Shown here in pieces: positions 13,765-38,425 of a stretch of DNA of 51,580 nt. A program made the position numbers and the translations under genes. The notes under the pieces are model-generated. The model was not told the DNA's origin. It searched no databases and saw nothing but the letters and a program-made list of their open reading frames with translations. The DNA comes from Bacillota bacterium (GTDB lineage: Bacteria; Bacillota; Clostridia; Peptostreptococcales; Anaerovoracaceae), in NCBI GenBank assembly GCA_017428655.1, contig JAFRQL010000105.1, forward strand, positions 1-51,580. The letters run 5' to 3'. Numbering within the stretch: position 1 is the stretch's first letter; every line of letters begins with the position of its first letter.

Positions 13765-15147
13765 CTATACCGCCGGCTGGGGCTGAGCCTCGTTCTGCTG
13801 GGCTTCCGCCTGCTTTGCGGGAGCCTTCATCTTGTGGTACTCAAGGGCGAGCATCCCGCCGGTCTTGTCCAGCTGAAGGTCCTTGTTCATCCGGTTCCTG
13901 AAGACCTCGTCGGTCATGTACTTGTCCACCAGCTGGCCGAAGGCGGGATCCTTTCTGATCTGCTCCGCTCCGGCGGCAAAGCCCTGGTTGCTGGTCCTCA
14001 GGCCCGGATCCATCTTGGTGGATATCTCGTGGGCCAGCAGTATCTCGGAAAGGTACTGGGACGCGAAGTGCTTGTTGACCGGGCCTTCGGTGAGGGCGTT
14101 GGCGGCCCTGTTGAGCCTGAACTGGGAGGCTCCGACGGCATGGTTCCTGGTGCTCTTTCTCAGGGCATCCGTCAGGTCGCTGATCTGGCCCTTTTCGGCC
14201 ATCTTCTTGTATTCCTCCCTCTCGGCGCTGCTGGACATGGCGCGCCTGAAGGCGGATCCGCCCTGCATCAGCCTCGCCTTTTCCTTTTCCAGAGCCTCCG
14301 GCGTGATCATGGCGCCGTTCTTTCCCTTGGAAAGGTTCCTGACCGCCATGAGCTGGGCGCAGGAGTCCTCGGTGAACCGGACGCGGAGCCTGTTCTTCGC
14401 CTGGTTCTTCAGCTCCTCCGCCGTGAAGACCTTTCCGTTCATCCTGTCGCGGTTGAAGGACTCGGCCTCCAGAGACCTCTTGGGATGGGCCTGCTTGATC
14501 TCATCCAGATAGGAATCGAAGACGCTCTTGGGCATGAACTCCTTGAGGACGCACATTGCCTGCTTGAAGTGGGGCTGCTTCTTCTTGCCTCCTGGGACGT
14601 TGGCGGGACCGTTGATGTATTTCTTGATGGCGGTGGTCATGGACTTGTTCTCGGCAGGGGTCAGGGGCAGGCCCCTTTCCATCTTCTGCTGGGCGGCCTC
14701 CACCTGCTTCATCATCTCGATGTAGCTGGGATCCTTCTTCTCCAGCTCCGCGGGCCTTCCGACGACGCCGCCTTCCTTCAGGCTCTTTACCGCCTCATCC
14801 ATGAAGGCCTTGTCCTTGTGGACGCTCTCAGACCTGTCCCAGGCAAGTTTTTCTTCCCGCATATCGTTCTCGATGACGTATAAAAGCCCCGCGAGGCTCT
14901 CGACGTCTCCGGTCTTGGCGATCTCCATGGTCCTGGGATCCTTCATGAACTTCTTGAAGGCCGGCTGCTTCATCAGGGTCGCCGCGTTCTTCATCAGCTC
15001 CTGCTGGTCAGCCTCTTCGTTGGGCTTGTTCCAGACCAGAGCCATGGACCCCGCTATCAGCGAGGCGATGTTGACAGAACCCGGATTCCTTTTGACGTCC
15101 TCGCGCATATCGCTCATGAATCTGCCGTAGGTCAGCTTTATGGGCAT
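13765..15147 (-). CDS. Hypothetical hydrophilic, K/E/Q-rich helical protein, 460 aa, no signal peptide or TM
   Basis: Long ORF with SD GGGAGA 7 nt upstream of the ATG at 15147. No family recognised. It is the last gene before the terminator. Confidence 0.65.
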   Translation of the reverse strand: MPIKLTYGRFMSDMREDVKRNPGSVNIASLIAGSMALVWNKPNEEADQQELMKNAATLMKQPAFKKFMKDPRTMEIAKTGDVESLAGLLYVIENDMREEKLAWDRSESVHKDKAFMDEAVKSLKEGGVVGRPAELEKKDPSYIEMMKQVEAAQQKMERGLPLTPAENKSMTTAIKKYINGPANVPGGKKKQPHFKQAMCVLKEFMPKSVFDSYLDEIKQAHPKRSLEAESFNRDRMNGKVFTAEELKNQAKNRLRVRFTEDSCAQLMAVRNLSKGKNGAMITPEALEKEKARLMQGGSAFRRAMSSSAEREEYKKMAEKGQISDLTDALRKSTRNHAVGASQFRLNRAANALTEGPVNKHFASQYLSEILLAHEISTKMDPGLRTSNQGFAAGAEQIRKDPAFGQLVDKYMTDEVFRNRMNKDLQLDKTGGMLALEYHKMKAPAKQAEAQQNEAQPQPAV

Positions 15148-15175: not shown

Positions 15176-15940
15176 CTAATCGTTATAGGGATCCTTCTTC
15201 AGCACGAGGACCGATCCTTCGGCTTCCTTATCCTTCTCGGCTCCGTCATCCTCGTGTCCGGACTTTTGGGTCTCTTCGCCGTCCTCGCCTACGATGACCC
15301 AGCCCTGCTCCTCCAGATCCTTGCGCATCTCTTCCTTCTTGAGCTTCTTATACTCGCTGTCACCTTCCATGAGGGCCCAGCCGTCGGCGTCGGATTCCTT
15401 GATGTGGGAGAGCATCTCCTCTTCCCTCTTCTTCTTGGCCTCATTGAGGGTCTCGTGCATGTACATCATGACGGGCTTGAAGATGGGGTTGTTGGCCATG
15501 TTGGTGGACTGCTCGATCTCCTGAAGGGCCTGCTCCACCTTTATCTGGGACTTGACGCTCTTCATGAAGTTCTTCTTGCCCTTGGTGAAGCTCTTGACAT
15601 TCTCGAGGACCTTGTTGCTCAGGGCGACGTCGGTTATCTCACCGTTGAGGAACTGGTTGAGCATGTTCTCGAACTCGTCCCACTCGGGGCTGTCGTTGTC
15701 GTTTCCCCTCTCGGTCTCCATTATGGAGAGGATCATCTTGACCGTCGCTCTGGCTTCGGCCATCTGGGCCTCCTTGAGGGATCTTTCCTTCTGCTGACGC
15801 CTTGCATGGGCTTCGGCGGCGATGCTGGCGGGATCAGGCTCCTTCTTTTTTGGGGGCTCCTGAGGATCCTGCGACTTCTTTTTCGGCTCCTCGGAGGAGG
15901 CTACCGCCTTGTTCTTGATCTTCCTTCCAAATAGTGCCAT
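15176..15940 (-). CDS. Hypothetical highly charged protein (about 254 aa), no signal peptide or TM
   Basis: ORF-track start at 15949 is a GTG. The ATG at 15940 (MALFGRK) is preferred, with a weak SD. Basic/proline N-tail, acidic C-tail. No family recognised. Confidence 0.6.
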   Translation of the reverse strand: MALFGRKIKNKAVASSEEPKKKSQDPQEPPKKKEPDPASIAAEAHARRQQKERSLKEAQMAEARATVKMILSIMETERGNDNDSPEWDEFENMLNQFLNGEITDVALSNKVLENVKSFTKGKKNFMKSVKSQIKVEQALQEIEQSTNMANNPIFKPVMMYMHETLNEAKKKREEEMLSHIKESDADGWALMEGDSEYKKLKKEEMRKDLEEQGWVIVGEDGEETQKSGHEDDGAEKDKEAEGSVLVLKKDPYND

Positions 15941-16048
15941 ACGATCCACCCTTGTCTTTCCAATGAGATGCGCGGCTGTAGGTCCGCTTTTTCAGGCTTT
16001 TATACTGTTCTTTCCGCCGTTTTGGGGGCTCGGGACCCGCGGCCGGCC

Positions 16049-16136: not shown

Positions 16137-17903
16137 TTATTTGCTCCCCCTTCTGTCCGGGCCCAGATATCTGAAGGCCAGCATGGTGATGTCGTCGAAC
16201 TGGTCCGCTCCGTCCACGAAGCTGTCGATCTTCTTTCTGACATAGGGGAGTATGACCTCGGGCTTTGAGCTGGACGCGCCGGTCAGGGCCTTCATCATCC
16301 TCGCCTCGCCGAACTGCTGCCTTTCGTCGGTCATTGCTTCGGTGACGCCGTCGGTGTACTGGAAGATGGCGTCTCCGGGGCTGAGGATCATCTCCTGGTC
16401 GGCAAAGGCGGGGTCGTCGTCCTGATCGAGGATCTCGGGCTCGAAGGCTCCCACCGCGACTCCGTTGTGCTTTTCAAGGAGGCTCCAGCGTCCGTCGTGA
16501 TAGTAGGCGGGCTTCTCGTGGCCCGCGTCCGCCCAGATCAGTTTTCCGGTGGAGATCTCCAGGATGCCCAGCCAGACGGTGACGAACATGTAGTACCTAT
16601 TGCCCTCGCAGATCTGCTCGTTGACCCGGTAGAGGATCCCCGCGGGATCGAGGCCCGCGAGAGCGGCGTCCTTGAGCATGGTCCTGGTGGTCATCATGAA
16701 GAGGGCCGCCGGGATCCCCTTGCCCGATACGTCTGCGATCACCATGGCCAGATGGTCGTCGTCGATCATGAAGAAATCGTAGAAGTCTCCTCCCACCTCC
16801 TTGGCGGGATCCATGGTCGCGTAGATGTCGAATTCGGTCCTGTCGGGGAAGGCCGGGAAGGTGCTGGGCAGCATGGCCGCCTGGATCCTGGTCGCAAGAT
16901 CCAGCTCGGTGCTGATCCTCTCCTTTTCCGCCGTTACCCTGGTGAGATCCGCCACCGATTCCTGGGCCTTCTTCTCCATGTCGGCCAGGACGAAGCTCAG
17001 GTTCTCGATCTCGTCTCCAGTGTGGATATCCAGGTCGGCGAAGTAACCGGCCGGGGAAGACTCTCCTGCCTCGTCGTCGATGTAGCGCTGGGCGGCGTCC
17101 GAGATGGTGTTGATGGGACCGATCACGGTCCTGCGCATGTGCCTTACCACCAGGGCGGCAACGATGAAGGCGGCGCATAAGGCTCCTATCAGCAGCTGGA
17201 GTGCGAAGATCCTCATATTCCGGGCTATGTTGGCAAGGGATACGTCGGCCATGACGAAGGCCGCGGTCCTGCCGCTGTCGTCCTTTACCGGGACCCCCGC
17301 GGTGCAGAGCCAACCGCTCCCCTTGATCTTTCTCACGTCGTAGAGGGTCCCCTGGCCGTCCCAGTCAAGGAAGGTGTCCATCTCATCGGACGAGACCCGG
17401 TCCCACTGGCCGGGGAGGCGCATGGTCTCGGGATCCTCATCGGGATCGACGATATAGACGATGGCGCCCGCCGCCCTGTCGTACATGGCCAGGTAGACGT
17501 CGGACACCCCTCTGGTGTCGCAGAACTCCCTGAGGACGTGGCGGATCGCCCCGTATTCGGTAAGCTCCGTGAACTGATCCAGGCTGCTGCGGTATCCTTC
17601 GGTCTCGGTCTTTTCCGACCCGGCCGCCGTGTGCTCCCTGTACTGCTCCAGGACCTGATCGGCCAGGGCAGCAGGATCCGCGTCCTCGTTCAGATCGATG
17701 GACATGGCCGCGTGATGGGCGGTGCTGAAGGCCAGCTCCACGTGCTGGTCGTACATGGCATATGTGTAAAAGCCCAGACCGATGATCTGGGCGACAAGAG
17801 CGAGCACCATGCAGCATATCATTATGGTGTGGAAGATGTGAGCGGAAAGAGCGTAGAACCTCCGCTCGGTATCGTTCATCTCCCGTATGGACTTCTTGGG
17901 CAT
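16137..17903 (-). CDS. Membrane-bound sensor PP2C phosphatase (SpoIIE/RsbU family) with two TM segments, an extracytoplasmic domain and a HAMP-like linker
   Basis: 588 aa with TM helices near aa 20-50 and 225-250. The C-terminal PP2C core has ATRIQAAMLP, GGDFYDF, VIADVSGKGIPAALFM, GHEKP and DDITMLAF. Confidence 0.85.
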   Translation of the reverse strand: MPKKSIREMNDTERRFYALSAHIFHTIMICCMVLALVAQIIGLGFYTYAMYDQHVELAFSTAHHAAMSIDLNEDADPAALADQVLEQYREHTAAGSEKTETEGYRSSLDQFTELTEYGAIRHVLREFCDTRGVSDVYLAMYDRAAGAIVYIVDPDEDPETMRLPGQWDRVSSDEMDTFLDWDGQGTLYDVRKIKGSGWLCTAGVPVKDDSGRTAAFVMADVSLANIARNMRIFALQLLIGALCAAFIVAALVVRHMRRTVIGPINTISDAAQRYIDDEAGESSPAGYFADLDIHTGDEIENLSFVLADMEKKAQESVADLTRVTAEKERISTELDLATRIQAAMLPSTFPAFPDRTEFDIYATMDPAKEVGGDFYDFFMIDDDHLAMVIADVSGKGIPAALFMMTTRTMLKDAALAGLDPAGILYRVNEQICEGNRYYMFVTVWLGILEISTGKLIWADAGHEKPAYYHDGRWSLLEKHNGVAVGAFEPEILDQDDDPAFADQEMILSPGDAIFQYTDGVTEAMTDERQQFGEARMMKALTGASSSKPEVILPYVRKKIDSFVDGADQFDDITMLAFRYLGPDRRGSK

Positions 17904-17915
17904 ACTGCCTCCGTT

Positions 17916-18323
17916 TTACAGGTTCTTGATTATGGTGAGGATGTTCTTTCCGCCCTCGTAGGAGTAGCGGACGTCGTCCATGGTCTCCTTCACCAGAAGG
18001 ATGCCCAGGCCTCCGTCCCTGGCGAGGAGGGCTTCCTCAGAAGTGTCCGCATCGGCCTTTGCCAGGGGATCGAAGGGCTTGCCGTGGTCCATGAACTGGA
18101 TGACCACCCTGAGGGGATCCTCCAGGACCTCGCAGTGGACCTCGGCGGGTCCCACCTCGGGATCGTAGGCGTAGCTTGAGATGTTGACGAAGATCTCTTC
18201 GACGGCAAGGCGCACCTGAAGCTGGATCCGCTGGGGGCAGCCCCGTTCTTCAAGCTTGCCGAGAACGAACCCGTTGACGACGTCGAGATTGGGGATCTCG
18301 GCCGTTACAGTGATATTCTCCAT
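17916..18323 (-). CDS. Anti-sigma-factor-type serine kinase (RsbW/SpoIIAB-like, HATPase_c_2)
   Basis: 135 aa. Has LAVEEIFVNISSYAY (N-box-like), DHGKPFDP and GGLGILLVKETMDDV (G-boxes). Sits between the STAS and PP2C genes. Confidence 0.8.
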   Translation of the reverse strand: MENITVTAEIPNLDVVNGFVLGKLEERGCPQRIQLQVRLAVEEIFVNISSYAYDPEVGPAEVHCEVLEDPLRVVIQFMDHGKPFDPLAKADADTSEEALLARDGGLGILLVKETMDDVRYSYEGGKNILTIIKNL

Positions 18324-18334
18324 GTCGTCCTCCT

Positions 18335-18643
18335 TTAATCCACGAATTTGAAGAGCCTGGTGAACCCAGTGACTTCAAGTACCTCCATGATCGATTTGTC
18401 TACGTTCTTGACGGAGAGGACGCCGCCCTTGCGGCGAAGATCCATGTAGATCCGCTTGAAGGTGCGAAGGCCCGCGCTGGAGATGTACTCCAGCTGCTCC
18501 ATGTCCAGAAGCAGATCGTCGTACTTGGAGGCGACATCCACCAGGATGTCCTCGACCTCGTATGCGTTGGTCGCGTCGATGAAGCCCTTGAGCTTGACCT
18601 CAGCGTCTTTTCCATGCTTGATAAGGCTTATATCCATGCTCAT
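18335..18643 (-). CDS. STAS-domain anti-anti-sigma-type protein (RsbV/SpoIIAA-like)
   Basis: 102 aa. The YISSAGLRTF motif contains the phosphorylatable Ser. SD is CAGGAGGT 9 nt upstream. The ATG overlaps the stop of the upstream gene (ATGA, 18640-18643). Confidence 0.85.
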   Translation of the reverse strand: MSMDISLIKHGKDAEVKLKGFIDATNAYEVEDILVDVASKYDDLLLDMEQLEYISSAGLRTFKRIYMDLRRKGGVLSVKNVDKSIMEVLEVTGFTRLFKFVD

Positions 18644-19299
18644 ATACCGGTTACCTCCTGTACTGATACATTTTCATTCTTTGGTTCTTCTTCTGGGATT
18701 GGAGTTTCCTGAGGAGCGGGGCCTTCCGGCTCCGGTCCTGCCGCTGCGGCATCCTGGGGCGGAACCTGCATGCTTTCCTCAGGCTGCTTTTTCTTCTTTT
18801 CCCTCTTTTTCTTCGCGGGCTTGGGGGGCTCCTCTTCGGAGAGCCTGATGCTGCCCGGGAGTTCCCCGGCCAGAGCCTTCAAAGCCCTGTTTATGGAGAT
18901 CAGCCCGCTGATCCCCCTGCCTGCCCAGGCGGTCACGTAGGGGACCTCGCCCTCGTATTCCAGGGTGATCACCACGGGCCTGGTCATAACATATCTGATG
19001 AAGCAGGCTCTCACGTCCGGAAGCTCCTGCAGTATCAGGGCCCGCCCTATGTTCTGCATTGCCTTGGGGACCGCGGCCATCACCGAGAGCCTGGGCTCTT
19101 TGGTATCCAGCCGCCTGGCCTTCCTCGCCAGACCGAAGAACCTTACCGCTCCGGCTCCGTCGCTGATGCCTATGGGGAGCCTGAAATCGTTCTTCGGGAT
19201 GGAACTGAGCCTGCCGTCCTCGGTGGGGAGCATCCTGCCCATCAAAACGTTTTTTACTTCTTTTTCTGTCGTCATCTCTATCCGGCTTCTCTGCTGCAT
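18640..19299 (-). CDS. Hypothetical protein, 219 aa, globular N-part plus lysine/proline/glutamate-rich C-tail
   Basis: ORF is translationally coupled to the STAS gene and begins 7 nt after the coupling-protein stop. No family recognised and no clear SD. Confidence 0.55.
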   Translation of the reverse strand: MQQRSRIEMTTEKEVKNVLMGRMLPTEDGRLSSIPKNDFRLPIGISDGAGAVRFFGLARKARRLDTKEPRLSVMAAVPKAMQNIGRALILQELPDVRACFIRYVMTRPVVITLEYEGEVPYVTAWAGRGISGLISINRALKALAGELPGSIRLSEEEPPKPAKKKREKKKKQPEESMQVPPQDAAAAGPEPEGPAPQETPIPEEEPKNENVSVQEVTGI

Positions 19300-19305: not shown

Positions 19306-21360
19306 CTAATTATCCCCGGAGCCCGCGGCCTGGTCCATGCCCAGGACCTTCTCGTTCCTCTCGCTGAGGTCGTAGTAGATCTCGTCCGCCCTGAACATCT
19401 GGCTGCGGATCTCGGTGAGATCCATTGGCCCGAATTTATAGTACGGACACTTGTAGGACGGGGTGTACTTGGTCTTCATGGGGAAGGAGTTGAAGGAAAC
19501 TATGATGGAGTTTCCGGTGCTCTCCTGGTTGTTGAGCCTCTGAAGCTCGCTGGGGTAGATCAGCGGGCGCACCTGGGTGTTGCTGGAGACGTTGATGTCT
19601 CCCGACTTGCTCCCCAGTGAGCTGGACGTGCTGGTCGTCCTTACGGTCATGTTGCCGCACATCTCGGAGAACATCTTGCAGGTGTCGGTGTCGTTGGATC
19701 CGATGAACATATTGACGCCGCAGGTGCCTATGACGATGTCCGCGACCTCCTTGCCATAGACGTTGGTCAGCTGGACGAAGGACTGGACGACCATGGAGAA
19801 CCAGATCTTTCTGGAACGTCCGACGGTGATCATCTGGCCGAACTTGTCGATCTTGGGCATGTTTCCGAACTCGTCCATGATGAAGTAGACGTTTCTCGGA
19901 AGGGTCTGGCCCGGCAGGTTGGTCGCCACCTTGATGAGAGCCTTGTATGTGCTCAGGATGAACAGGGACGCCAGGAAGTGGCGGGTGTCCTTTTCATCGG
20001 GTATCTTGAGGAACAGCGCCGTGGGCTCGAAGGCGAACCGGTCGGCGTGGATGTCGGTGGTGCTGGTGAGGCCGCAGAGACCGCGGTCGTTGAAGATGCT
20101 CATCTTGTCGAAGGTGATGGACATGTAGGAGCCCAGGGTCGCCTCCGGGGCGGTCATGACCTGACGGGACAGCTGGTAAGCCTGGGAGAGCTTGCTCCTG
20201 CCCTCGAAGTAGTCCTTGAGCACCTTGTAATTGTTGTCCGAGTTGCCCAGGGCCTTGTTGACGTTGAACAGGTTGAACTTGTCCTTGGTCATGCCCAGCT
20301 TGGGATCGGTGCTGTCCTCAAGCATGGCCAGGACCGTCGCCATGACGATGCTCCTGGCGCCGCGCTCCCACAGGGGATCCTTCTCGTTCTGGATGGGGAT
20401 GAGTCCGCCTATAAGATCCGAAAGATCCTCGTACATCTCGTCGTAGATCTTCTGCTGGGCCACCGATACGTCGTCCCTGCAGTGGCCGAGATCCAGGTAG
20501 GCCTTGCCGTCCCATTCGACCCAGGGCTCGCCCTCCTCCGCTTCGCCGTTCATCCTGCGAAGATCCGGATAGTCGGACATGGGGTCGGTGTGGGCGGTTA
20601 TGCCCTCTCCGGCCTTGACGTATTCCTGATAGGCGTCCCAGATGGGCTCCAGCGGGTTCCAGCGGCTGGAAGAGTAGGTGTCTCTCAGGTCCAGGACCTG
20701 CACGTTGTAGCCTCTCTCCTTGAGGAAGGCGCTGTGAAGATCGAAGAGCTCGCCCTTGGGGTCCGTCATGATCATGGAGGACCCGCAGCTGGTAGCGCCC
20801 AGGAGCTGGATCATGGGGCTGATGAAGGTGGTGGTCTTACCGGAACCGGTGGCGCCTATGACCAGAGCGTGGACTCCGGGCTTGAAATTGCCCACCAGGT
20901 TGCCCTTCTTGTCCAGGACCGCCCTGACGGGGACTCCGTCCTTCTTGACCTCGCTGATCTTGTCGTAGCTGAAGGTCGGGAAGTACTTGTCCCTCTCTTC
21001 TTCGGTGAGGAAGCGGCTGTTCTCGAGGGAGCCCATGACCACGTCCTTGTCGGCGCCTTTTCCGCCCAGAAGCCCTCTTCCCTTTTTGCCGGTATTGATG
21101 AAGCCTCCGTTTATGGTGTAGATGGCGCCCATCAGAAGGTTCAGGATGAGACCCGTGAACCAGGTGGCGGGCTCTATGAGCATCCTCAGGCGGAAGCGCC
21201 AGGGCTCGCCCACGACCACCGATGAGATGTTCTCAAAGAGAAAGCGCAGCACGCAGCCCAGAAAGAGGGACGAGACGATGAATATGCCTATATATATGGC
21301 GATCGTCTGCTTGTCCAGCTCTTTGAATCTTTCCGCTATGCTGCCGAATAGTTTCTTCAT
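19306..21360 (-). CDS. Type IV secretion coupling protein (VirD4/TraG/TraD family ATPase) with N-terminal TM anchor
   Basis: 684 aa with two N-terminal TM helices. Walker A is HALVIGATGSGKTTTF; also MIMTDPKGELF and SSRWNPL. Walker B region is YFIMDEFGNMPKI. VVQSFVQL matches the family's Q-rich motif. Confidence 0.8.
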   Translation of the reverse strand: MKKLFGSIAERFKELDKQTIAIYIGIFIVSSLFLGCVLRFLFENISSVVVGEPWRFRLRMLIEPATWFTGLILNLLMGAIYTINGGFINTGKKGRGLLGGKGADKDVVMGSLENSRFLTEEERDKYFPTFSYDKISEVKKDGVPVRAVLDKKGNLVGNFKPGVHALVIGATGSGKTTTFISPMIQLLGATSCGSSMIMTDPKGELFDLHSAFLKERGYNVQVLDLRDTYSSSRWNPLEPIWDAYQEYVKAGEGITAHTDPMSDYPDLRRMNGEAEEGEPWVEWDGKAYLDLGHCRDDVSVAQQKIYDEMYEDLSDLIGGLIPIQNEKDPLWERGARSIVMATVLAMLEDSTDPKLGMTKDKFNLFNVNKALGNSDNNYKVLKDYFEGRSKLSQAYQLSRQVMTAPEATLGSYMSITFDKMSIFNDRGLCGLTSTTDIHADRFAFEPTALFLKIPDEKDTRHFLASLFILSTYKALIKVATNLPGQTLPRNVYFIMDEFGNMPKIDKFGQMITVGRSRKIWFSMVVQSFVQLTNVYGKEVADIVIGTCGVNMFIGSNDTDTCKMFSEMCGNMTVRTTSTSSSLGSKSGDINVSSNTQVRPLIYPSELQRLNNQESTGNSIIVSFNSFPMKTKYTPSYKCPYYKFGPMDLTEIRSQMFRADEIYYDLSERNEKVLGMDQAAGSGDN

Positions 21361-21389: not shown

Positions 21390-22472
21390 TTACTGTATGA
21401 TCTCGTGAGACCGGATCATGAGCCTTCCGCCTTCGGTCAGTTCGACTCCGAGGACGACCTGGACCGCGGCGGTCTCGCTGCTGATCCTTATCTCGGCTGC
21501 TCCCGGCTCATTCCCGGGCAGGATGAAGGCCTCGCAGAAGCCTCTGTCGCTGAATACGCCGCCGTCTCTTGCTGTTCCCTCGCTGCTGGTCTCGATGATC
21601 CAGTCGGACGGGAAGTCATAGATCACGGGATCCGGCCCCTCGGGGCGTTCCTCGGGCTCTGTGTAGTCCCCTTCGCTCTTGACCTTGGCGCTCTCATCGA
21701 CGGCGCCGGTGCTGACGATATCGAAGAGGGGCACCTTTTCATCGGTCCCTTCGAGATAGATGTAGATCTCTCCTTCCTCGACGGATATCCTTCCCTTGGG
21801 CCAGCTTGGATCGATGGGATATTCCTTGCCGTCGTAGACGAAGGTCGCCGGCTCGATCTGCTCCGCCGAGGCCTCCTCCTGAGAGGCTGCCCCGCCGAGG
21901 CTCATCACGATGACGGAAAGACCGCCGCCGTCCTCAGGATGGCAGACGTAGGTGTATCTTCCTTCCTGCGGGCCGTTCACCTGATCCTGGATCTGATATC
22001 CGGACCAGCTGAGCAGGCTCAGGTCGTAGCCCCCGCCGTTGGCAAGGGAATCGACGAGCAGATCCATCCTGTAGACGGCATTGCCCGACTGGTCGAAAAG
22101 ATCCAGGTCGAGATCGGAGCGGCCGACGCCGCTGGCCGAAACGGTGAAGGCCGTGCCGTCCTTGGGCTGCTTCTTATCCTTTTCTATGGTGAGTATCGAG
22201 GAGGGCTCCCGGTATTCCCAGACCCCTCCCGGCGTCGCCGAAGTATCGATCCTGAGCTTCAGCTGCCCGTCCTTGTCGACGCCCCAGCTGACGGGATAGG
22301 GAGTGCTCCCCTCCGCGGTCTTCATGACCGTCCTGCTGCCCCTGACTATAAGGGCGAGGATGACCACCGCAGCGACAACGGCGAGAAGGCACGCGATCAG
22401 GGTCACGGTGGACCTGATCCTCGCCTTCTCCGCTTCGCGGTCGCTCTCAAATATCAGTTCGTCTTTTGCCAT
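21390..22472 (-). CDS. Bitopic membrane protein, 360 aa (short cytoplasmic N-end, one TM, about 310-aa ectodomain); function unknown
   Basis: TM is VTLIACLLAVVAAVVILALIV at aa 23-43. Tightly packed between the giant protein gene and the coupling protein gene. Confidence 0.6.
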   Translation of the reverse strand: MAKDELIFESDREAEKARIRSTVTLIACLLAVVAAVVILALIVRGSRTVMKTAEGSTPYPVSWGVDKDGQLKLRIDTSATPGGVWEYREPSSILTIEKDKKQPKDGTAFTVSASGVGRSDLDLDLFDQSGNAVYRMDLLVDSLANGGGYDLSLLSWSGYQIQDQVNGPQEGRYTYVCHPEDGGGLSVIVMSLGGAASQEEASAEQIEPATFVYDGKEYPIDPSWPKGRISVEEGEIYIYLEGTDEKVPLFDIVSTGAVDESAKVKSEGDYTEPEERPEGPDPVIYDFPSDWIIETSSEGTARDGGVFSDRGFCEAFILPGNEPGAAEIRISSETAAVQVVLGVELTEGGRLMIRSHEIIQ

Positions 22473-22486: not shown

Positions 22487-25400
22487 TTATTCGGTAACGG
22501 GGTCGGGAGCAGGCGCGTCTTCGGAACCGCCCGCGGAGCTGCTGTCAGAGGTGTCGCCGGCGGAAGATCCCGCATCGGAGGAGCTGCCGCTGTCAGAAGG
22601 AGCGTCTCCACCTTCAGACGGGGAAGCAGACTGGGAACCGCTCTCGCTCTGGCTGCCGCCCTCTTCCGTCGAGGCGCCCTGAGAGGGCGCTTCGGAGGAC
22701 CCTGAGCTGCCGGAGCTTTCAGATGAGCCGGAGGAGCCGGAACTGCCGGAGGATCCGGAGCTTCCGCTGCCGGACATCTCCGCGGCCCTTGCCGCTGCTG
22801 CGGCTGCGGCTGCCGCAGCGGCCGCCTCGTTGGCGCTCTGTTCGTTCTTCCAGAGGGTCACCGCGTTGGTCAGCTGGTCGGCCTCGGGATAGACCTTCAC
22901 GTCCACCGTGAACAGTATATCCTCGAGCTCCTGGCTCCTTACGGTGATCCTGTAGCTCAGATCGCGTCCGGTGAAGTTCCTGGGAGCGGTGAAGTTGACG
23001 TTCCCGTCGTTCCTGAAGCTTCCTGCGGACTTGGTCAGTTCGTTGATTATCGCCTCTACCTGAGCCGCGGCTTCTCTTTCCGCCGCGCTGTCTCCGCTGA
23101 TCCTGCTGAGCTTGGCGCTGCTCAGCAGCTGGGACAGGTAGCTGTCGGTATATCCGTGGGTCGCGCCCAGGCTGGCGGCGCTGGAGGCGCCGGTCTGCGG
23201 ATCGTAGTTCTCGATCTGGGCAGTGATACCCGAGGTGGAGCCGTGGACGGTGGGATCGATCCTCAGCACGTCGCCGGAATCCAGCAGGGTCGAGAGGTTC
23301 TCTCCCGAAGCCACGGTCTTGGCCTGGCTGGGCACTCCTATGGATGCGCTGCCGCTGTAGACCAGACCGGAGAGCAGGATGTCAGCAAGGCCGATATGGG
23401 CAGGCTTGCCCTGGACTATCAGCTGGTCGTAGACCCTGGTGATGGACCTTCCGCCGTTGCCAATGACAGCGGTGAGCCTGCTCAGCTTCCAGGAGGACGC
23501 GATGTAGCCTTCGCTGTTCCTGGGCTCCAGCTCGATGTATCTGAGCTCCGCCATCTCCGGGACCAGGACGCCGATCTCATCGACGCTTCCCGCGGCGAAG
23601 CCGCCTCCCTCGGACACGTAGCTTCTGATGTTGTCTATAGTGTATGTTCTCATCACGCCGTAGGAGTCGTAGTATCCGACGGTCATGGCGATGGGATCTG
23701 TGGTGCCGCTGTGGATGGAGCTGTCGTCTCCCGCGGTCTCAAGGGTGAGCCTGAGCAGACCGACGTTTCCGGAGAAGGGGTACCTGGCGGGCCTCTCCGA
23801 AGGCGAGACGGTGCCGCTGATGCTCCTGGTGAACAGGGTCTCTCCCTCAAAGCTCTGGGCTTCGACGTACATGTTCTGGATCTTCGCGTCCAGGCCTCCC
23901 TGGGCCGTTATGAAGGCTCCGGTGATGTCGCTGACGTTGCCCAGATCGAAATCGATCTCGATGAGCTGGCAGGGCGCGATCTGGGTGATGCCCAGGTCGG
24001 ACAGGTAGATGAACCTGCTCCTGAGCTCCTGGCCCGAGGGATCGTCTCCCTTGAAGAACAGCGCGATGGCAAGATCCTTGTTCATCGGATCCAGCTGCTG
24101 GGTCTTTATGTCCGGACTCATCTGCAGTATGAGCTTCTGAGTGCCGACCTCCTGGACCCTGTCCATGCTGAGGGTCCCGCCAAGGCCCGCGTTGGCCGTG
24201 CCGCCGAGATAGTAGCTCTCGATGAGCACTCCTCCCCTGACTCTCTGGAGCATGCCGTAGTTGATGGGCACGTGGAGATCTTCGGTGAGGGACATGGCCT
24301 TGACGTCGACTCCGTTGATGGCCTCCATGTTGCTGGTGTCGACGCCCAGGGCGTAGAACACGGGCACGTCGTTCTCGTCGACGGTGAACCTCATGGGTCC
24401 GGTGGAGTTCTGCATGGGCAGCTTGGTCATCACGTTGGTGTAGCGGATGGCGCCGGTCATGGTGTAGTTCTCGGGATCGCTGGTCTGATCGGTGATCTGC
24501 GGGTAGAGGAACAGGTTGACGGTGTCGTCCTTTGAGTTGGGCTCTCTCGGGACCACGGTGGTCCACTTGCCCTGCTCGCTGATGCTGATGGGGCTCTCCT
24601 TGAGGGCTATGTTGATCTCCGCGATGGAGTTGTTCTGGTCGGTCCTGTAGACCTGGACGTCCTTGGTCAGTGTCTCGGTCCTGGTCCAGGTGGTGATGAA
24701 GGTAGGCTCCATCCCGACGGGATAACCGTAGTCATACTCGCCGTTGGCGTTGATGAATCTGCGTCCGGTGCCGTTGACCAGGGAGATGTTTATATCCTGG
24801 ATGGGCCAGTTGGTGACCACGTTGCTCCTAAGCTGCAGCTGCATGTCCGCGAACTGGTAGATGTCCTTCACCGTGATCAGGAAGTTGTCGGTAGTGCTTG
24901 CCCTGAACTGGTAGTTGGGGTCGCTGACGTAGTAGTCCAGATCGTTCTCGGTGACCACGGCGTTGTCGTATTCGACGGTGCGGCTCTTGCTTCCGGTGCG
25001 TCCGGTGTACTTGTTCATCAGCTCGATGACGTCTATGCCCTTCTTGAACTGGAACAGTCCGTCGGTGTCGAAGTAGTGATAGGACATGGACATTCCGCCG
25101 GAGTAGACCTCGTCGTTGATCAGTATGCTCTTGCCGTTCTTGTCGGTGACCCTGTGGGTACCGTAATTTCCGGTGGTGATGCTGATGAGGAACTTGGCGT
25201 TGTAGCTGGATTCGGTGATCTGGTATACGGTGGCGATCTCGGAGGCGCTGTGGCCCGCGGCTCCCTTATAGCTGGCGTATTCGCCGGGATCCCTGTAATC
25301 GATGCCTACCCAGCCCAGACCGTTCTCGTCGTTGCTGGACGCGGTCCAGGTGGGGCTGAGAGCGTCGTTGGTCTCCTTTTCCACCGTGATGTATTCGATC

Positions 25401-27898
25401 TTCAGCTTGTCGTAGATGTCGCTGTTGCCGTCCTGGTTGTCCGGGATGACCATGATGGAGACCAGGTCTCCGTAGTCCTGGCTGGCAGGGATGCGGAACT
25501 GGCATTCGTCGCCGGTCCTGAAGGCGTCGCCCTGGATCTGCTGGTTGGCAAGGGTGCAGCCGCTCTTTCCGTGCTCAAAGATGAGCTGGAAGTAGAACAG
25601 GTTCTTGCTGCCTGCGTCGTCGTCCTCGTGGGAAGGATTGACCAGATCGCCCTTGACCTTGACGGTGACCAGGTAGCTCCCGCGCTCCTTGGTGAAGCCG
25701 AAGTCCTGCTTGGTCTGCTCATAGGTCATGCTGCGGCGCACGCTGTCCCAGTCGATCTCGTCCTTCTTGCTGACCTCGCTGCCTTGACCGTTGAACTCGA
25801 CGGTGGTGCCGTCGTCCTGGATCAGGGTGCCGGGCACCCAGTCTTCGCCGGGCACGGGCACGGTCTCGGTGGGAGCGTAGGTGGTTCCGATGGAGAAGCA
25901 GACGTCCTTGGTGGTCACCGCTCTTGAGTAGCGGACGTGGGAGAGATACTTGGGCTGGCTGGTATTGGGGACCAGCTCGGTGCTGCTGATCTCCTCCCAC
26001 TGGGCGACCCTGCTGTCTACATAGCTTGCCCTCTCCTCCGAGGGCTTGACCATGGCGATGGAGACTCCGGAGAACTGCCATTCGTCGCCGCCCTCCAGCT
26101 TGAAGCCCACTCCGGTGAACTGCTTCACGCCCTGCAGAGGCACGATGAACTGGACGGTACCGCCCTGGCGCAGACCGTATTTATACGCGAAATCGTCCAC
26201 GTTCCCCGGCCATTCGCCGTAGAACATCCTGACGTATTCCCTCACATCGTACGCGGGGCTCACGATCTCCTTGTCCTTGATGCTGATGTAGCTGAACTGG
26301 ATCTTGAGATCCGATTCGGTGCCCGCGTTGCCCACGTTGTCGGTGGAGATGGTCACCAGGTAGCGCTCGAGCCTGTCCACGGGCTTGAGGACCAGGTATT
26401 CGCTGTAGGGCTGCAGGGAGAAGTATTTATACGAGTTGCTCCCGGGAGCCGCGTCGATGCTGATGCCCTCGATGCTGGTCGCGGTGCTGTATTTGACGGG
26501 GTTGTTGTCTCCGGCGACATAGCTGGTGCGGACGGTGGCTCCGTCAAGGCCGGCGCTGGCGGTCGCCGCGTCGTAGACCGCGATGCAGGTGTAGCTGATG
26601 GAGTCGGACTCGCTCAGGACCTTTCTGGCTTCCCTTTCGGTCTCGGCAGCGGAAGACCTGGAGACCGGGACCTCGGCAAGGCCCGCTTCCGCGGCCGCCG
26701 AGGATTCGCCCAGGATGATCCCGATGCTGGTGATCTCCCTGTAATCGGGGAGCATGGCCGGAACTGCAAGGCTGTCGCCCTGCTGGGCAAAGCCGGCTAT
26801 GGCGATATCGCCCATCTCTTCCATGATGGGTCCCAGGGAATTGATGGCAAGAGGAAGGACGACGTCCCTGCTGGCGCCGAAGATGTCGACGTATCTTATC
26901 TGAAGGGCCGCCGTCTCGCAGAAGCCCAGATCGGAGACCTTGGACATGCTGCCCGCGGCGTATGATCCGGCTAATGACTCAAAGCCCGCCCCGCCGGTAT
27001 CCGCAAGGTCCAGCCTTATGACCACCTTTTTGGTGGTCTGGGTGCTGTGGGCCTGATCGATGTGGGTCGTCTGTCCGGTGGCAGCTTCGTAGGCCTGCCT
27101 GCTCGTCCTGTCGACGACGACCGCTCCGGCGAAGCCCCCCGCCCCGTAGGCCTTGAGGTTGTACATCCCTCCGCTGGTCTCCCAGTTGAAGATGCCCGCA
27201 CCTGCGCCCAGCTGAAGCTCCGCGAAGACGCTGCCTTCGAAATCGATATAGGGGAGATTGGAGAACCATCCGTACATATCAAGGCCGTAGACCGCGCTGA
27301 CTTCGTATATGCGCATGGCCTGACAGATCCACTGGCTGGAGGTCTTGGACCTCTTTCCGAAGATCTGGATGCCGGTGATGGAAGTTATCTCTTCGGGGGT
27401 TGTGAACAGGAACTGGTCGGTCTGGACCGATCCCAGGGCCTTGTAGCCTTCGGCGTCGCCGGCAGGGGCGTATCCGAAGCCGGAAGCGGCGATGGACTTT
27501 CTGCTGCTCCTGCTGCCGTACTGCTCAGCCTTGTCGATGCCGTCGGAGATGCCGTCGACGTTGGGCATGATTATGGCGGACCTGCTCACGGCGGTGGAGC
27601 CGGAGCCTGTGGTATAGCTTACGACGAAATAGAGCACGTTGTCCGCGATGGTACCCTTTGCCCTGGAGCCGCTGCTGACCTCAAGGATGTAGGTGTTGGT
27701 GGTCGGGGTCGGCGCCGCGGCCGCGGCGTCCTGAGTCTTGTTTACAGGAAACCAGTCTATGGCGAAGGCCTCAGCGGGGACCGCCGAAAGGAGCACGGCA
27801 AATACCAGCAGAAGGGAGGCAGTGCGCCTGATCCTGCCGGCTGCTGCGAGCCTTTTGAGGCATTCCTTTATTCCTTTTTTCTTACGACCATCCATCAT
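22487..27898 (-). CDS. Giant secreted protein, 1803 aa: Sec signal peptide, about 7-8 beta-sandwich modules with PLAT/LH2-like sequence logic, and an Ala12 plus Ser/Gly/Asp/Glu low-complexity tail
   Basis: SD AGGAG is 7 nt before the ATG at 27898. The signal peptide is RRTASLLLVFAVLLSAVPAEAFA. Recurrent modules look like VTISTDNVGNAGTESDLKIQFSY...GGTVQFIVPL...FTGVGFKLEGGDEWQFSGVSIAMV. No LPXTG and no TM anchor. Confidence 0.75.
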   Translation of the reverse strand: MMDGRKKKGIKECLKRLAAAGRIRRTASLLLVFAVLLSAVPAEAFAIDWFPVNKTQDAAAAAPTPTTNTYILEVSSGSRAKGTIADNVLYFVVSYTTGSGSTAVSRSAIIMPNVDGISDGIDKAEQYGSRSSRKSIAASGFGYAPAGDAEGYKALGSVQTDQFLFTTPEEITSITGIQIFGKRSKTSSQWICQAMRIYEVSAVYGLDMYGWFSNLPYIDFEGSVFAELQLGAGAGIFNWETSGGMYNLKAYGAGGFAGAVVVDRTSRQAYEAATGQTTHIDQAHSTQTTKKVVIRLDLADTGGAGFESLAGSYAAGSMSKVSDLGFCETAALQIRYVDIFGASRDVVLPLAINSLGPIMEEMGDIAIAGFAQQGDSLAVPAMLPDYREITSIGIILGESSAAAEAGLAEVPVSRSSAAETEREARKVLSESDSISYTCIAVYDAATASAGLDGATVRTSYVAGDNNPVKYSTATSIEGISIDAAPGSNSYKYFSLQPYSEYLVLKPVDRLERYLVTISTDNVGNAGTESDLKIQFSYISIKDKEIVSPAYDVREYVRMFYGEWPGNVDDFAYKYGLRQGGTVQFIVPLQGVKQFTGVGFKLEGGDEWQFSGVSIAMVKPSEERASYVDSRVAQWEEISSTELVPNTSQPKYLSHVRYSRAVTTKDVCFSIGTTYAPTETVPVPGEDWVPGTLIQDDGTTVEFNGQGSEVSKKDEIDWDSVRRSMTYEQTKQDFGFTKERGSYLVTVKVKGDLVNPSHEDDDAGSKNLFYFQLIFEHGKSGCTLANQQIQGDAFRTGDECQFRIPASQDYGDLVSIMVIPDNQDGNSDIYDKLKIEYITVEKETNDALSPTWTASSNDENGLGWVGIDYRDPGEYASYKGAAGHSASEIATVYQITESSYNAKFLISITTGNYGTHRVTDKNGKSILINDEVYSGGMSMSYHYFDTDGLFQFKKGIDVIELMNKYTGRTGSKSRTVEYDNAVVTENDLDYYVSDPNYQFRASTTDNFLITVKDIYQFADMQLQLRSNVVTNWPIQDINISLVNGTGRRFINANGEYDYGYPVGMEPTFITTWTRTETLTKDVQVYRTDQNNSIAEINIALKESPISISEQGKWTTVVPREPNSKDDTVNLFLYPQITDQTSDPENYTMTGAIRYTNVMTKLPMQNSTGPMRFTVDENDVPVFYALGVDTSNMEAINGVDVKAMSLTEDLHVPINYGMLQRVRGGVLIESYYLGGTANAGLGGTLSMDRVQEVGTQKLILQMSPDIKTQQLDPMNKDLAIALFFKGDDPSGQELRSRFIYLSDLGITQIAPCQLIEIDFDLGNVSDITGAFITAQGGLDAKIQNMYVEAQSFEGETLFTRSISGTVSPSERPARYPFSGNVGLLRLTLETAGDDSSIHSGTTDPIAMTVGYYDSYGVMRTYTIDNIRSYVSEGGGFAAGSVDEIGVLVPEMAELRYIELEPRNSEGYIASSWKLSRLTAVIGNGGRSITRVYDQLIVQGKPAHIGLADILLSGLVYSGSASIGVPSQAKTVASGENLSTLLDSGDVLRIDPTVHGSTSGITAQIENYDPQTGASSAASLGATHGYTDSYLSQLLSSAKLSRISGDSAAEREAAAQVEAIINELTKSAGSFRNDGNVNFTAPRNFTGRDLSYRITVRSQELEDILFTVDVKVYPEADQLTNAVTLWKNEQSANEAAAAAAAAAAAARAAEMSGSGSSGSSGSSGSSGSSESSGSSGSSEAPSQGASTEEGGSQSESGSQSASPSEGGDAPSDSGSSSDAGSSAGDTSDSSSAGGSEDAPAPDPVTE
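22490..22835 (-). repeat. Low-complexity coding tract: Ala12 run, (GSS)n-type tandem codon repeats and an S/G/D/E-rich tail
   Basis: The DNA shows reiterated GGAGGAGCC/GGAACTGCC/GGAGGATCC-type units and a GCN x12 run. The protein reads EAAAAAAAAAAAARAAEMSGSGSSGSSGSSGSSGSSESSGSSGSS... Confidence 0.8.
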
Positions 27899-34314: not shown

Positions 34315-35298
34315 CTATCCTATCCTGAGCCTCTTGCGTTTGATCATCACATAAGCGATGACAGCGGCTATGCTTGCTATCACCAGCGCTATGAATATCC
34401 AGCTGCCGGTGTCAAAATACATAAGTATCGAAAAATCGTATTCCTTCACATTCCCAGCGGCGTCGTATGCCCTGAGGACGTATATCCCGGTGTCCCTGAT
34501 GACTCCGGTGCCGTCGGCCTCGACGTAAACGTCGGTAAGCTCCCCGTTGCGAAGAAGGCTCAGGGTGCCGCCCTTCTCAACGCCGGAGAACTTTAAGGCG
34601 CTCCTCACCTGGTTATCGTCTCCGATCTTCCCCTGGAAGGCCAGAGCCGGAGGGGTCCTGTCGATCTCAACGCTGAGGGTGTACGCCAGATCGGTGCTCA
34701 TGCACTCGTATTCGACCTCGTAGACGCCCTCCTTGGTCATGTCGACCACATATCTGTCGGAGTATGCGTCCTGGCCGTCGAGGGTCGCCGATGTGACGAA
34801 GAACCCGTCGGGGACGGTGAACCTCTGGATGGCGTTGGAATAGGGGCCGACCAGGGTGAAGGACATGATCCTCCTAGAGCCGCCGCCGACTCTTGCCTGG
34901 ACCACGTAGTCTCCCGCCTCGTTGATGGTGGACAGGTCTCCGGTGTATTCGGCGCCGTTGTGGTAGACTCCCACGGTCTCGTCGCCGCCGGTGTCCACGC
35001 TCACCGGAACGTTGAGGTACATGCCGTCAGCCGCGGTCACATGGACCTCGGTCAGGCTGCCGTCTATGGGATAGACGTAGTCGTGGGTCGACCAGTCGTA
35101 ATACATGGTGTTCGATATCTGGACCCTGTCCGTGCCCGATACTGTCTCTACGGCACTGCCGGCGGGCTGGTTGGTCATGGGATCCAGCACTCCGGAGTAT
35201 TCGACGTCGGCGAAGACCGGCGCCGCCAGGAGCAGGAGCAGGACCAGGGCGGCTGCCGCAGCAAGAGCCCTCAGGGTCTTTTTTACAGTCATATCCAT
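34315..35298 (-). CDS. Surface protein, 327 aa: signal peptide, beta-rich ectodomain, C-terminal TM anchor with basic tail
   Basis: Signal peptide is ALAAAAALVLLLLLAAPVFADV. C-terminal anchor is WIFIALVIASIAAVIAYVMIKRKRLRIG, with no LPXTG before it. SD AAAGGAGG is upstream. Confidence 0.65.
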   Translation of the reverse strand: MDMTVKKTLRALAAAAALVLLLLLAAPVFADVEYSGVLDPMTNQPAGSAVETVSGTDRVQISNTMYYDWSTHDYVYPIDGSLTEVHVTAADGMYLNVPVSVDTGGDETVGVYHNGAEYTGDLSTINEAGDYVVQARVGGGSRRIMSFTLVGPYSNAIQRFTVPDGFFVTSATLDGQDAYSDRYVVDMTKEGVYEVEYECMSTDLAYTLSVEIDRTPPALAFQGKIGDDNQVRSALKFSGVEKGGTLSLLRNGELTDVYVEADGTGVIRDTGIYVLRAYDAAGNVKEYDFSILMYFDTGSWIFIALVIASIAAVIAYVMIKRKRLRIG

Positions 35299-38054: not shown

Positions 38055-38333
38055 CTACTTGATAGTGCCCTTTCTGATGGAATTGACCCACTTGATCATC
38101 TGAGGCATCATGATCTTCAGTGCGAGGATCAGGACGAAGATGAGCAGGAATCCGATAAGGGCGTTCTTCAGCGCTCCCTTGGCCTTTTCCCTGTCCTGAG
38201 GCTCTTCCGCCTTGGCATACTTGACGCCAAGAATGACGCAGTAGACCGAGCCGGCAGCGCCCACCAGACCCAGAAGCGGGGTCAGCATGGATTCGATCAG
38301 CTCGATAATGGGATTGGCAACAGCATCAAACAT
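38055..38333 (-). CDS. Small 2-TM protein, VirB2/TrbC pilin-like (92 aa)
   Basis: Start set at the ATG at 38333 behind GGAAGGAGA; the ORF-track start at 38429 runs through the promoter motif. Hydrophobic helix LTPLLGLVGAAGSVYCVILGV, charged loop KYAKAEEPQDREKAKGALKN, then helix ALIGFLLIFVLILALKIMM, the classic VirB2/TrbC layout. It is the first gene of the locus. Confidence 0.5.
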   Translation of the reverse strand: MFDAVANPIIELIESMLTPLLGLVGAAGSVYCVILGVKYAKAEEPQDREKAKGALKNALIGFLLIFVLILALKIMMPQMIKWVNSIRKGTIK

Positions 38334-38381
38334 GTGATTTTCTCCTTCCTTAAATTTATGATCCACCGGACAGTCCGGCGC

Positions 38382-38425
38382 ATTCTCAATTTGAACTCTA
38401 ACAAGGGCTGTCCAACAAATGTCCA
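38382..38425 (-). promoter_or_regulatory. Activator-type promoter: TGGACA-TTTGT-TGGACA direct repeat plus a -10-like GAGAAT 21 nt downstream (copy A)
   Basis: CTGTCCAACAAATGTCCA (plus, 38408-38425) is identical to 16075-16092. GAGAAT is at 38387-38382 (minus). A 13-bp palindrome CCGGAC-A-GTCCGG (38366-38378) follows. It lies in the gap between the kinase stop and the pilin-like gene. Confidence 0.55.

Follow-up and report, generated by a model that had tools for sequence, protein, structure and literature searches.

The stretch of DNA analysed here, referred to as the window, comprises 51,580 nucleotides (51.6 kb) of contig JAFRQL010000105.1 (assembly GCA_017428655.1) from a rumen or gut clostridial bacterium of the family Anaerovoracaceae. 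On its minus strand it encodes a three-gene partner-switching module, consisting of a STAS-domain protein, a serine kinase and a membrane phosphatase of the PP2C type, which is embedded in an operon for a machine resembling type IV secretion systems (T4SSs). Comparison with related loci supports, at the level of sequence, a functional link between the STAS protein and this T4SS-like machine. The genes of the module, with lengths in amino acids (aa), are:

18335..18643, minus strand: STAS protein, 102 aa, with predicted phospho-acceptor Ser55; the proposed output of the switch
17916..18323, minus strand: GHKL serine kinase of the RsbW/SpoIIAB type, 135 aa (PF13581), with intact N, G1 and G2 boxes
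16137..17903, minus strand: membrane sensor PP2C phosphatase, 588 aa (PF07228)

The window holds exactly one protein of each kind (phmmer), and all three keep their catalytic or phosphorylation motifs, namely the STAS serine, the kinase boxes and the PP2C aspartates. The STAS protein matches PF01740 (E=4.8e-15) and the 'anti-sigma factor antagonist' model TIGR00377 (70 bits; cutoff 53.45); its predicted phospho-serine, Ser55, lies within the motif YISSAGL, and its nearest solved structures in a PDB sequence search are SpoIIAA, RsbV and TM1442. The kinase matches PF13581 (HATPase_c_2; 72.3 bits, cutoff 27.4), with an N box EEIFVN at residue 42, a G1 box DHGKPF at residue 79 and a G2 box GGLGI at residue 104, and its sole match in the PDB is RsbW (6m36_A). 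The phosphatase matches PF07228 (SpoIIE; E=2.3e-44) over profile positions 1-191 of 192 and has the metal-binding aspartate motifs GGDFYD at residue 371, DVSGKG at 391, TDG at 517 and FDD at 568. An earlier note on this DNA, made from the sequence alone, had placed an RsbV-like STAS protein, an RsbW-like kinase and a 588-aa membrane PP2C after the coupling-protein gene, and its coordinates, families and motifs are confirmed. On the strength of these motifs we propose that the three genes constitute a working serine phospho-switch. The NCBIfam equivalog models for RsbW, SpoIIAA and SpoIIE all score the module below their cutoffs (for the kinase, 42.6 against 145 with the RsbW models).

The phosphatase is laid out as a first transmembrane (TM) segment, a single-Cache-like ectodomain, a second TM segment, a HAMP-like linker, a coiled coil and the SpoIIE-type PP2C domain, the two hydrophobic segments being residues 27-45 and 235-253. 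In an AlphaFold2 model of residues 1-335, built from an alignment of 73 sequences (predicted local distance difference test score, pLDDT, 82), the first TM helix leads into a long helix and an alpha/beta sensor, after which come the second TM helix and one that is HAMP-like. With this model Foldseek places a WalK model first (E=2.9e-7), together with single-Cache/PDC sensor domains that include those of a formate chemoreceptor, KinD and CitA; further down the list comes Chlamydia RsbU with its periplasmic domain. As modelled, the ectodomain is thus of a single-Cache/PDC-like fold, and domains of this kind typically bind small molecules. The earlier note had the ectodomain respond to an envelope signal; for such a fold, 'envelope signal' is too loose a term. 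PDB sequence matches of the phosphatase are the PP2C domains of RssB and SiaA, and its best NCBIfam match is SiaA at 60 bits, far below the equivalog cutoff of 700.

The module sits in a run of about 14 co-directional minus-strand genes that extends from position 38429 down to 13765 in the order pilin, p841, p327, p701, VirB4, PLAT-domain giant, p360, VirD4, p219, STAS, kinase, PP2C, p257 and p460. The other genes of this run, and the regulatory pair upstream of it, are:

38453..40664, minus strand: two-component system with a LytS-type histidine kinase and an OmpR-type response regulator (Pfam), directly upstream of the pilin gene
38055..38429, minus strand: VirB2-like T4SS pilin, 124 aa (PF18895, 41.2 bits against 26.6; NF045849, 55.3 against 40)
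35353..37878, minus strand: p841, 841-aa N-terminally anchored protein, kept in related clusters only centrally (about residues 420-610)
34315..35298, minus strand: p327, 327-aa membrane protein, with tblastn/phmmer matches in nearly all of the VirD4-anchored loci described below
32197..34302, minus strand: p701, 701-aa polytopic VirB6-like membrane protein of the MMCAP2_0566 / Mbov_0396 family (NF045848, 141 bits against a cutoff of 90), with multiple hydrophobic segments
27936..32117, minus strand: VirB4-type ATPase, 1393 aa (PF19044 and DUF87), with N- and C-terminal extensions
22487..27898, minus strand: secreted giant protein, 1803 aa, with a PLAT domain (PF01477) at residues 756-843 and a Ser/Gly-rich tail
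21390..22472, minus strand: p360, 360-aa single-pass membrane protein (TM segment at residues 25-43), conserved in the close clade of relatives described below, with homologues in at least 20 related loci
19306..21360, minus strand: VirD4-type coupling protein, 684 aa (PF02534, E=2.7e-48; NCBIfam conju_CD1115, 304 bits against a cutoff of 250)
18640..19299, minus strand: p219, cytoplasmic protein of 219 aa, or more probably 211 aa, whose Lys/Glu/Pro-rich tail is disordered; candidate partner of the STAS protein or of VirD4
15176..15949, minus strand: p257, 257-aa highly charged protein, lineage-specific, found elsewhere only in two loci (L093 and L092, the latter a 327-kb metagenome contig with 98-100% identity to the window)
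13765..15147, minus strand: p460, 460-aa protein with neither TM segment nor signal peptide; last gene ahead of the terminator

Gaps around the module are short: 6 bp between the genes of VirD4 and p219, -4 between p219 and STAS, 11 between STAS and kinase, and 12 between kinase and PP2C. The stop codon of p219 and the start codon of the STAS gene overlap in ATGA, with AGGAGG 10 nt upstream, which agrees with the earlier note; the preceding open reading frame (ORF), there taken to encode 219 aa, probably begins at Met9 and encodes 211 aa, as do its homologues and a 99% identical database protein, and the overlap is unaffected by this change. The sole strong minus-strand terminator is at 13706-13679, past the p460 gene, and the module is therefore internal to the operon; its proposed embedding among the secretion genes is borne out. 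An 83-aa ORF with a TTG start at 37739-37990 (minus strand) was rejected as a gene: it overlaps the p841 gene by 140 bp and has a homologue in none of 90 related loci.

By its protein families, the gene set is that of a T4SS-like system of the monoderm MPF-FATA type, with VirB4, VirD4, VirB6-like and VirB2-like components all present. Upstream of the cluster lie the two-component system and then ligA and pcrA, and downstream lie genes for a peptidase, an aminotransferase and the methylaspartate pathway. The G+C content of the window is uniform, and scans of the window for protein families detected no relaxase, integrase or replication genes. The cluster looks chromosomal and non-conjugative. 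No sigma-factor family scores above threshold in any major ORF of the window, in agreement with the earlier note; one candidate at 46135-46755 was rejected, its Sigma70_r4 match being sub-threshold (21 bits; cutoff 24.1) and inside an XRE-type helix-turn-helix (HTH) protein.

Related clusters were collected by a scan with a VirD4 alignment, one genome per species, and the 80 loci compared are the best-scoring subset of a larger set of matches. Their gene content was read from tblastn and phmmer searches with the window's proteins, a STAS gene being accepted at phmmer E<1e-3. The VirD4 proteins of these loci are 58-83% identical to the window's; many of the loci are contigs of metagenome-assembled genomes (MAGs) that end inside the cluster, and nearly all come from Lachnospiraceae, Oscillospiraceae and other rumen or gut Clostridia, three isolates included. 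Among isolates that have the cluster are Lachnospiraceae bacterium C6A11, Lachnospiraceae bacterium C10 and Ruminococcaceae bacterium FB2012. A STAS gene is present in 45 loci and absent from 10 whose slot is covered, the remaining 25 being cut by contig ends; in other words, the gene occupies a fixed slot in 45 of the 55 informative loci. In 31 of these 45 it stands alone, with neither kinase nor PP2C within 10 kb, whereas both enzymes accompany it in 10, the kinase only in two and the PP2C only in two. Within the close clade, whose VirD4 proteins are 78-83% identical to the window's, the gene order is VirB4-PLAT-p360-VirD4-p219-STAS-(kinase-PP2C)-p460, and every locus whose contig extends to the slot has the STAS gene after p219 and, if there is a p460 gene, ahead of it. 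A larger, more distant group has the order pilin-(p841)-VirD4-p327-p701-VirB4-STAS-PLAT; the STAS gene directly follows VirB4 in 25 loci, mostly ahead of the giant protein.

A neighbour-joining tree divides the STAS proteins into two subtypes, the widespread type A (GRLD...TGFAGLL) and type B (GYIDASNA...TGFTRLFKF), to which the window's protein belongs. In the close clade, one and the same slot between p219 and p460 is occupied by type A alone (L018, L021, L024, L027), by a STAS gene with a kinase gene (L025 and L026, the latter of type A), by type B alone (L015, L016), or by type B with kinase and PP2C (the window, L007, L009, L012-L014, L017, L020, L022, L036). The slot thus holds a STAS gene with or without enzymes, which indicates that the STAS protein is the constant part of the arrangement and that kinase and phosphatase have been gained and lost around it. 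Every one of the 51 distinct STAS sequences from related loci has the phospho-serine, and nearly all match the motif Y[IV]SS[AS]GLR without change, the exceptions being two with a single substitution. Pairwise identities of STAS proteins correlate with those of the VirD4 proteins (r=0.67; 44 loci), as expected under co-inheritance. The idea that type-A STAS proteins are unusually conserved was rejected, their mean pairwise identity being 0.54 versus 0.69 for VirD4.

In three relatives (L007 17174-17470, L013 20878-21210 and L023 20605-20901) a further STAS gene, divergent in sequence, lies downstream of the module at a distance of a few genes; these second proteins group in the tree with the STAS proteins of two free-standing loci (L001 and L003), and in L007 a glycosyltransferase gene lies two genes after the second STAS gene.

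The frequency of solitary STAS genes invites the explanation that the STAS protein is a structural or chaperone subunit, either a constitutive accessory of a T4SS ATPase or an adaptor for p460 or the giant protein, which kinase and phosphatase fine-tune in some lineages. It stands alone in most clusters and always adjoins VirB4, VirD4, p219 or a candidate substrate, and there is a parallel in MlaB, a STAS-type accessory of the ATPase MlaF. Even so, the serine and its motif are invariant in clusters that have no kinase nearby, which suggests that control by phosphorylation matters; for the rest, this explanation overlaps largely with the phospho-switch and differs from it mainly in emphasis. 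We regard it as improbable.

The same distribution bears on which protein of the module acts on the machine. The earlier note treated the kinase as the effector, to be tested against VirD4 and VirB4 among others, and this is not upheld: 31 clusters keep the STAS gene with neither kinase nor PP2C, and in relatives the kinase is fused to the membrane phosphatase, one protein of the same family (P0045; 713 aa) having it at the C terminus of the PP2C. Since the kinase is dispensable and is found in membrane-bound fusions, the STAS protein is the likely output, and a diffusible anti-sigma role for the kinase is unlikely. That role is central to the canonical partner switch, in which the kinase would be an anti-sigma factor holding an unlinked SigB/SigF-like sigma factor, the STAS protein would free the sigma factor, and the module would act through transcription, either on the T4SS genes or on a larger regulon. 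The proteins do match the families of anti-sigma antagonist, RsbW and RsbU/SpoIIE, homologues are named 'anti-sigma B factor antagonist' or 'RsbU' in the sources, and the visible genome amounts to 51.6 kb. Yet no sigma factor was found in the window, nor in five related loci whose 20-kb contexts carry Pfam annotation; two type-A STAS genes examined in Pfam-annotated contexts have no kinase, PP2C or sigma factor within 10 kb; most clusters have a STAS gene without a kinase; and the fusions, together with the low score of the kinase against the RsbW equivalog, speak against a classical anti-sigma factor. An unlinked sigma factor as the target is, on this evidence, unlikely.

Judged from gene content, kinase and PP2C genes are repeated additions to clusters of this kind; the arrangements number at least five, and the sensor domains differ. 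One locus (L030) has a 1074-aa PP2C with a beta-propeller (Reg_prop) ahead of VirD4, together with two STAS genes, p219, a pilin gene and a kinase; another (L045) places the STAS gene after VirB4 and has, upstream of the cluster, genes for a histidine kinase, a serine kinase and a PP2C of 526 aa; others have the order VirB4-STAS-PP2C with a PP2C of 535 aa (L082), a PP2C upstream of the cluster (L079), or pilin-STAS-PP2C-p460 followed at a distance by STAS-kinase (L095). The full-length PP2C family is very large (at least 8000 candidates at E<=1e-10), and the 120 best homologues listed are 45-98% identical to the window's protein over at least 94% of the query. In a neighbour-joining tree, PP2Cs embedded in T4SS-like clusters (those of the window, L092, L093, L007, L009, L013, L014, L017, L020, L022, L036 and L095) form a clade, outside which the only T4SS-linked PP2Cs are that of L012 and the outlier of L105. 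One free-standing lineage, L008/L094, is nested in this clade; the other PP2Cs not linked to T4SS genes fall in sister clades.

These observations lead us to consider it somewhat probable that the module is a phospho-switch belonging to an MPF-FATA-type T4SS-like system, in which the STAS protein is the machine-facing element and the kinase and phosphatase set its state. In the mechanism we propose, the unphosphorylated STAS protein would bind a cytoplasmic component of the machine, the best candidates being the VirD4 ATPase, the VirB4 ATPase and the translationally coupled p219, and would thereby license assembly or substrate transfer. The kinase would turn the STAS protein off by phosphorylating Ser55, and the membrane PP2C would dephosphorylate it, and so turn it on again, once the Cache-like domain outside the cell senses a small-molecule cue. 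Transcriptional control would fall to the two-component system, with the switch as a faster, post-translational layer. In the window's lineage the slot is occupied by a STAS subtype accompanied by a kinase and a phosphatase of its own. The earlier note had suggested post-translational gating of the T4SS by the module. A functional link is supported by the STAS slot (45 of 55 loci), the T4SS-embedded subclade of PP2Cs and the repeated recruitment of enzymes; the gating itself, and with it the direction, target and ligand of the switch, we infer.

Several observations weigh against the phospho-switch as a part of the machine. Ten informative clusters lack a STAS gene, which is therefore not essential to this type of machine. 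The invariance of the serine in clusters without a kinase implies either kinases acting in trans or no control by phosphorylation there, and to that extent the model is incomplete. Binding of the STAS protein to T4SS proteins is something we infer; the STAS and PP2C trees are simple neighbour-joining trees of short proteins, about 100 aa in the case of STAS; and the genome beyond the 51.6 kb in view leaves room for an unlinked sigma factor. Members of the partner-switch family also occur apart from T4SS genes: such genes are absent near about 75 of 80 PP2C-anchored metagenome loci, and also near more distant family members with the orders STAS-PP2C-kinase (P0044) and PP2C-kinase (P0035); six loci (L001-L006) are free-standing; and in one (L008, also P0005) a STAS-kinase-PP2C cassette stands by itself between prmA and a rhodanese gene, with 53-54% identity to the window in the PP2C, 67% in the kinase and 51% in the STAS protein.

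The earlier note had undertaken to abandon the link if related genomes carried the three genes independently of the T4SS-like genes. Taken literally, that is what the free-standing loci do, yet it is a weak test, because the free-standing case closest to the window lies inside the T4SS-linked clade, the others belonging to more distant clades. The free-standing loci also give substance to the explanation that a mobile STAS-kinase-PP2C cassette rides in the operon as a passenger, regulating an unrelated process such as metabolism or a stress response and sharing with the T4SS genes only their transcription; besides the L008 cassette, related PP2C-kinase pairs are found in many unrelated contexts. 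Several facts stand against this: the cassette occupies the exact slot of the lone STAS gene in sister loci, it is retained there across lineages whose PP2Cs have diverged to 47-55% identity, the only free-standing lineage within the T4SS-linked clade (L008/L094) is nested in it, and PP2Cs of other types have been recruited independently to the same kind of cluster. We consider a passenger cassette quite improbable and retain the phospho-switch with the STAS protein as its machine-facing output.

Non-sigma outputs of partner switches have precedents. The btr locus of Bordetella includes, besides the genes of its switch proteins, those for the sigma factor BtrS and for an anti-sigma factor that is secreted. 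As in the window, the genes for the PP2C, serine kinase and STAS protein of that locus (BtrU, BtrW and BtrV) accompany those of a secretion system; the Bordetella proteins influence secretion beyond simple release of a sigma factor (PMC8256260). The Bordetella machine is a Gram-negative type III secretion system, whereas the present cluster is monoderm and T4SS-like, has no sigma factor in view and a membrane phosphatase of the Cache type, and is related to clusters in which the STAS gene alone is conserved. In Vibrio fischeri, kinase and PP2C activities of SypE oppose each other on one serine of SypA, a STAS protein whose unphosphorylated form is the output on a non-sigma target (PMC8256260). 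The bifunctional SypE is mirrored by the PP2C-kinase fusions in the window's family; unlike the present module, it is a cytoplasmic fusion to a response regulator and serves polysaccharide and biofilm formation, whereas here the genes are separate, sensing is extracellular and the context is T4SS-like. In the SiaABCD system of Pseudomonas aeruginosa, the membrane HAMP-PP2C protein SiaA and the kinase SiaB set the phosphorylation of the small partner protein SiaC, which binds a non-sigma target and activates it (PMC8457831); that target is a diguanylate cyclase, whereas no GGDEF protein is found here and the window's phosphatase reaches only 60 of the 700 bits required of SiaA. STAS proteins acting as outputs thus include SypA, RbaV and BtrV (PMC8256260) as well as SiaC (PMC8457831).

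With the RsbV/RsbW/RsbU and SpoIIAA/SpoIIAB/SpoIIE systems the module shares its three families, the phospho-serine motif and the nearest solved structures; it differs from them in having no adjacent sigma-factor gene, sub-cutoff equivalog scores and a secretion-machine context. Membership of this canonical class fails on the sigma factor, as far as the window allows. The machine itself resembles the T4SSs of Patescibacteria and the 89K T4SS of Streptococcus suis in its MPF-FATA-type gene set, its VirB2-like pilin and the lack of a relaxase detected nearby, and in those monoderm systems the missing relaxase has been taken to indicate co-option for a non-conjugative role (PMC12102498; PMC12857230). 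No STAS protein, kinase or PP2C is reported for them in PMC12102498 or PMC12857230, and the Clostridia clusters add a giant PLAT-domain protein (1500-1900 aa). The 'Hodor' conjugative megaplasmids (bioRxiv 10.64898/2026.02.21.707213) were considered as a possible counterpart and rejected: the preprint does not mention STAS, and the window has housekeeping flanks and no Rep/Par genes. The locus thus seems to join a known kind of regulation to a machine family that seems undescribed.

A search for literature linking STAS proteins, partner switching or anti-sigma antagonists with T4SSs, VirB4 or VirD4 found nothing relevant, in keeping with the earlier note, which knew of no described coupling of the sort for type IV systems. 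To our knowledge, almost all characterised Gram-positive T4SSs are conjugation systems under transcriptional control. Neither 'STAS' nor 'anti-sigma' occurs in the T4SS reviews and surveys examined, including PMC12102498. A 2025 nomenclature review notes the absence of VirB10 from Gram-positive T4SSs, considers it probable that activating signals are passed on by some component yet to be identified, and treats the existence of dedicated non-conjugative Gram-positive T4SSs as a long-standing open question (PMC12857230). Conservation of the STAS protein in the present machine family points to an undescribed form of control of T4SS-like machines in Gram-positive bacteria, and the window together with at least 45 related loci offers a testable candidate for the signal relay, a protein of about 100 aa with one predicted phospho-site, together with a sensor phosphatase whose ectodomain would be expected to bind a defined ligand. 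Tentatively, and with more doubt than confidence, we suggest that gut and rumen Clostridia may have a large and so far undescribed family of chromosomal T4SS-like machines in which a STAS protein is conserved as a regulatory subunit. The phosphorylation state of this protein, set by kinases and by sensor phosphatases of modular build (with Cache, beta-propeller or other sensors), would gate either a T4SS ATPase or the recruitment of substrates, and the protein would relay signals in place of VirB10. If the link holds, the non-sigma outputs of partner switches (type III secretion, biofilm formation, cyclic di-GMP) would extend to type IV secretion, and Ser55 alleles would provide a genetic handle on a widespread, unstudied machine of rumen and gut Clostridia.

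The genes on either side of the module are of interest as possible partners. Searches of Pfam, NCBIfam and PDB sequences with p219 gave no match; its AlphaFold2 model contains a confident alpha/beta domain (residues 1-150), for which Foldseek returned nothing significant (best E=8e-3, TM-score <0.31). Homologues of p219 adjoin the STAS gene and/or VirD4 in four gene orders, namely the window's and those of L069, L030 and L059, and p219 is for this reason a plausible partner of the STAS protein or VirD4. Homologues of p460 are found in 16 close-clade loci, directly after the STAS gene in loci without a kinase or after the PP2C gene in close relatives (immediately so in L009, L020 and L036), whereas in the window p257 intervenes. 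A PDB sequence search with p460 gave no match, and in some relatives p460 is part of proteins of 1310-1382 aa (L007 12402-16334; L013 15805-19953). It is a candidate substrate or accessory protein; a secreted substrate would fit its lack of signal peptide and TM segments and its occurrence as part of these larger proteins.

Among the machine components, VirB4 matches the NCBIfam model VirB4_plasma (E=3e-160; 534.8 bits, slightly under the equivalog cutoff of 590). Its core comprises residues 216-1016 of 1393; the membrane region at the N terminus and about 380 aa of C-terminal extension fall outside the core, and the full length is conserved in related clusters. At the N terminus of the 1803-aa protein is a signal-peptide-like segment, and the protein also has a single PLAT domain and an acidic Ser/Gly-rich tail; homologous giants of 1500-1950 aa follow VirB4 or the STAS gene in most related clusters, and the protein may be an extracellular part of the machine or an adhesin. 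No VirB8-like or VirB1-like (cell-wall hydrolase) component was recognised; p327, p841 and p360 gave no family or PDB match.

The two-component system is probably the transcriptional regulator of the cluster. Its LytS-type histidine kinase (PF06580) is paired with an OmpR-type rather than a LytTR-type response regulator, and homologous pairs (52-55% identity) precede the cluster in Lachnospiraceae isolate C6A11 (L073) and in a Eubacterium MAG (L083). The former carries two such pairs (2155-7326), and similar pairs are present in other loci.

Some MAGs contain two T4SS-like clusters per genome (L021 and L028, both in RGIG6050; L029 and L031). In RGIG6050 one cluster has the order p219-STAS-p460 and the other the order VirD4-p841-p327-p701-VirB4, with no STAS gene in the recovered part. 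In another locus (L046) the cluster begins right after the pyr operon. Just downstream of the cluster of L030, at 18471-20273, is a gene for a large serine recombinase (Resolvase, Recombinase and Zn_ribbon_recom domains); integrative elements may therefore carry some clusters of this family, though not that of the window.

Elsewhere in the window, within an operon at 135-8605, one ORF (4478-5461, minus strand) joins a Fumerase_C domain to a B12-binding domain. Its neighbours encode methylaspartate ammonia-lyase, the mutase E chain, MutL, fumarate hydratase and citrate-lyase-like alpha and beta subunits, a set belonging to glutamate fermentation by the methylaspartate pathway. At 45200-47800 lies a low-G+C islet (0.447 versus about 0.59) with the gene of the XRE-type HTH protein (46135-46755), an 87-aa ORF and a ParE toxin gene (47400-47711), likely a toxin-antitoxin pair on a small insertion.

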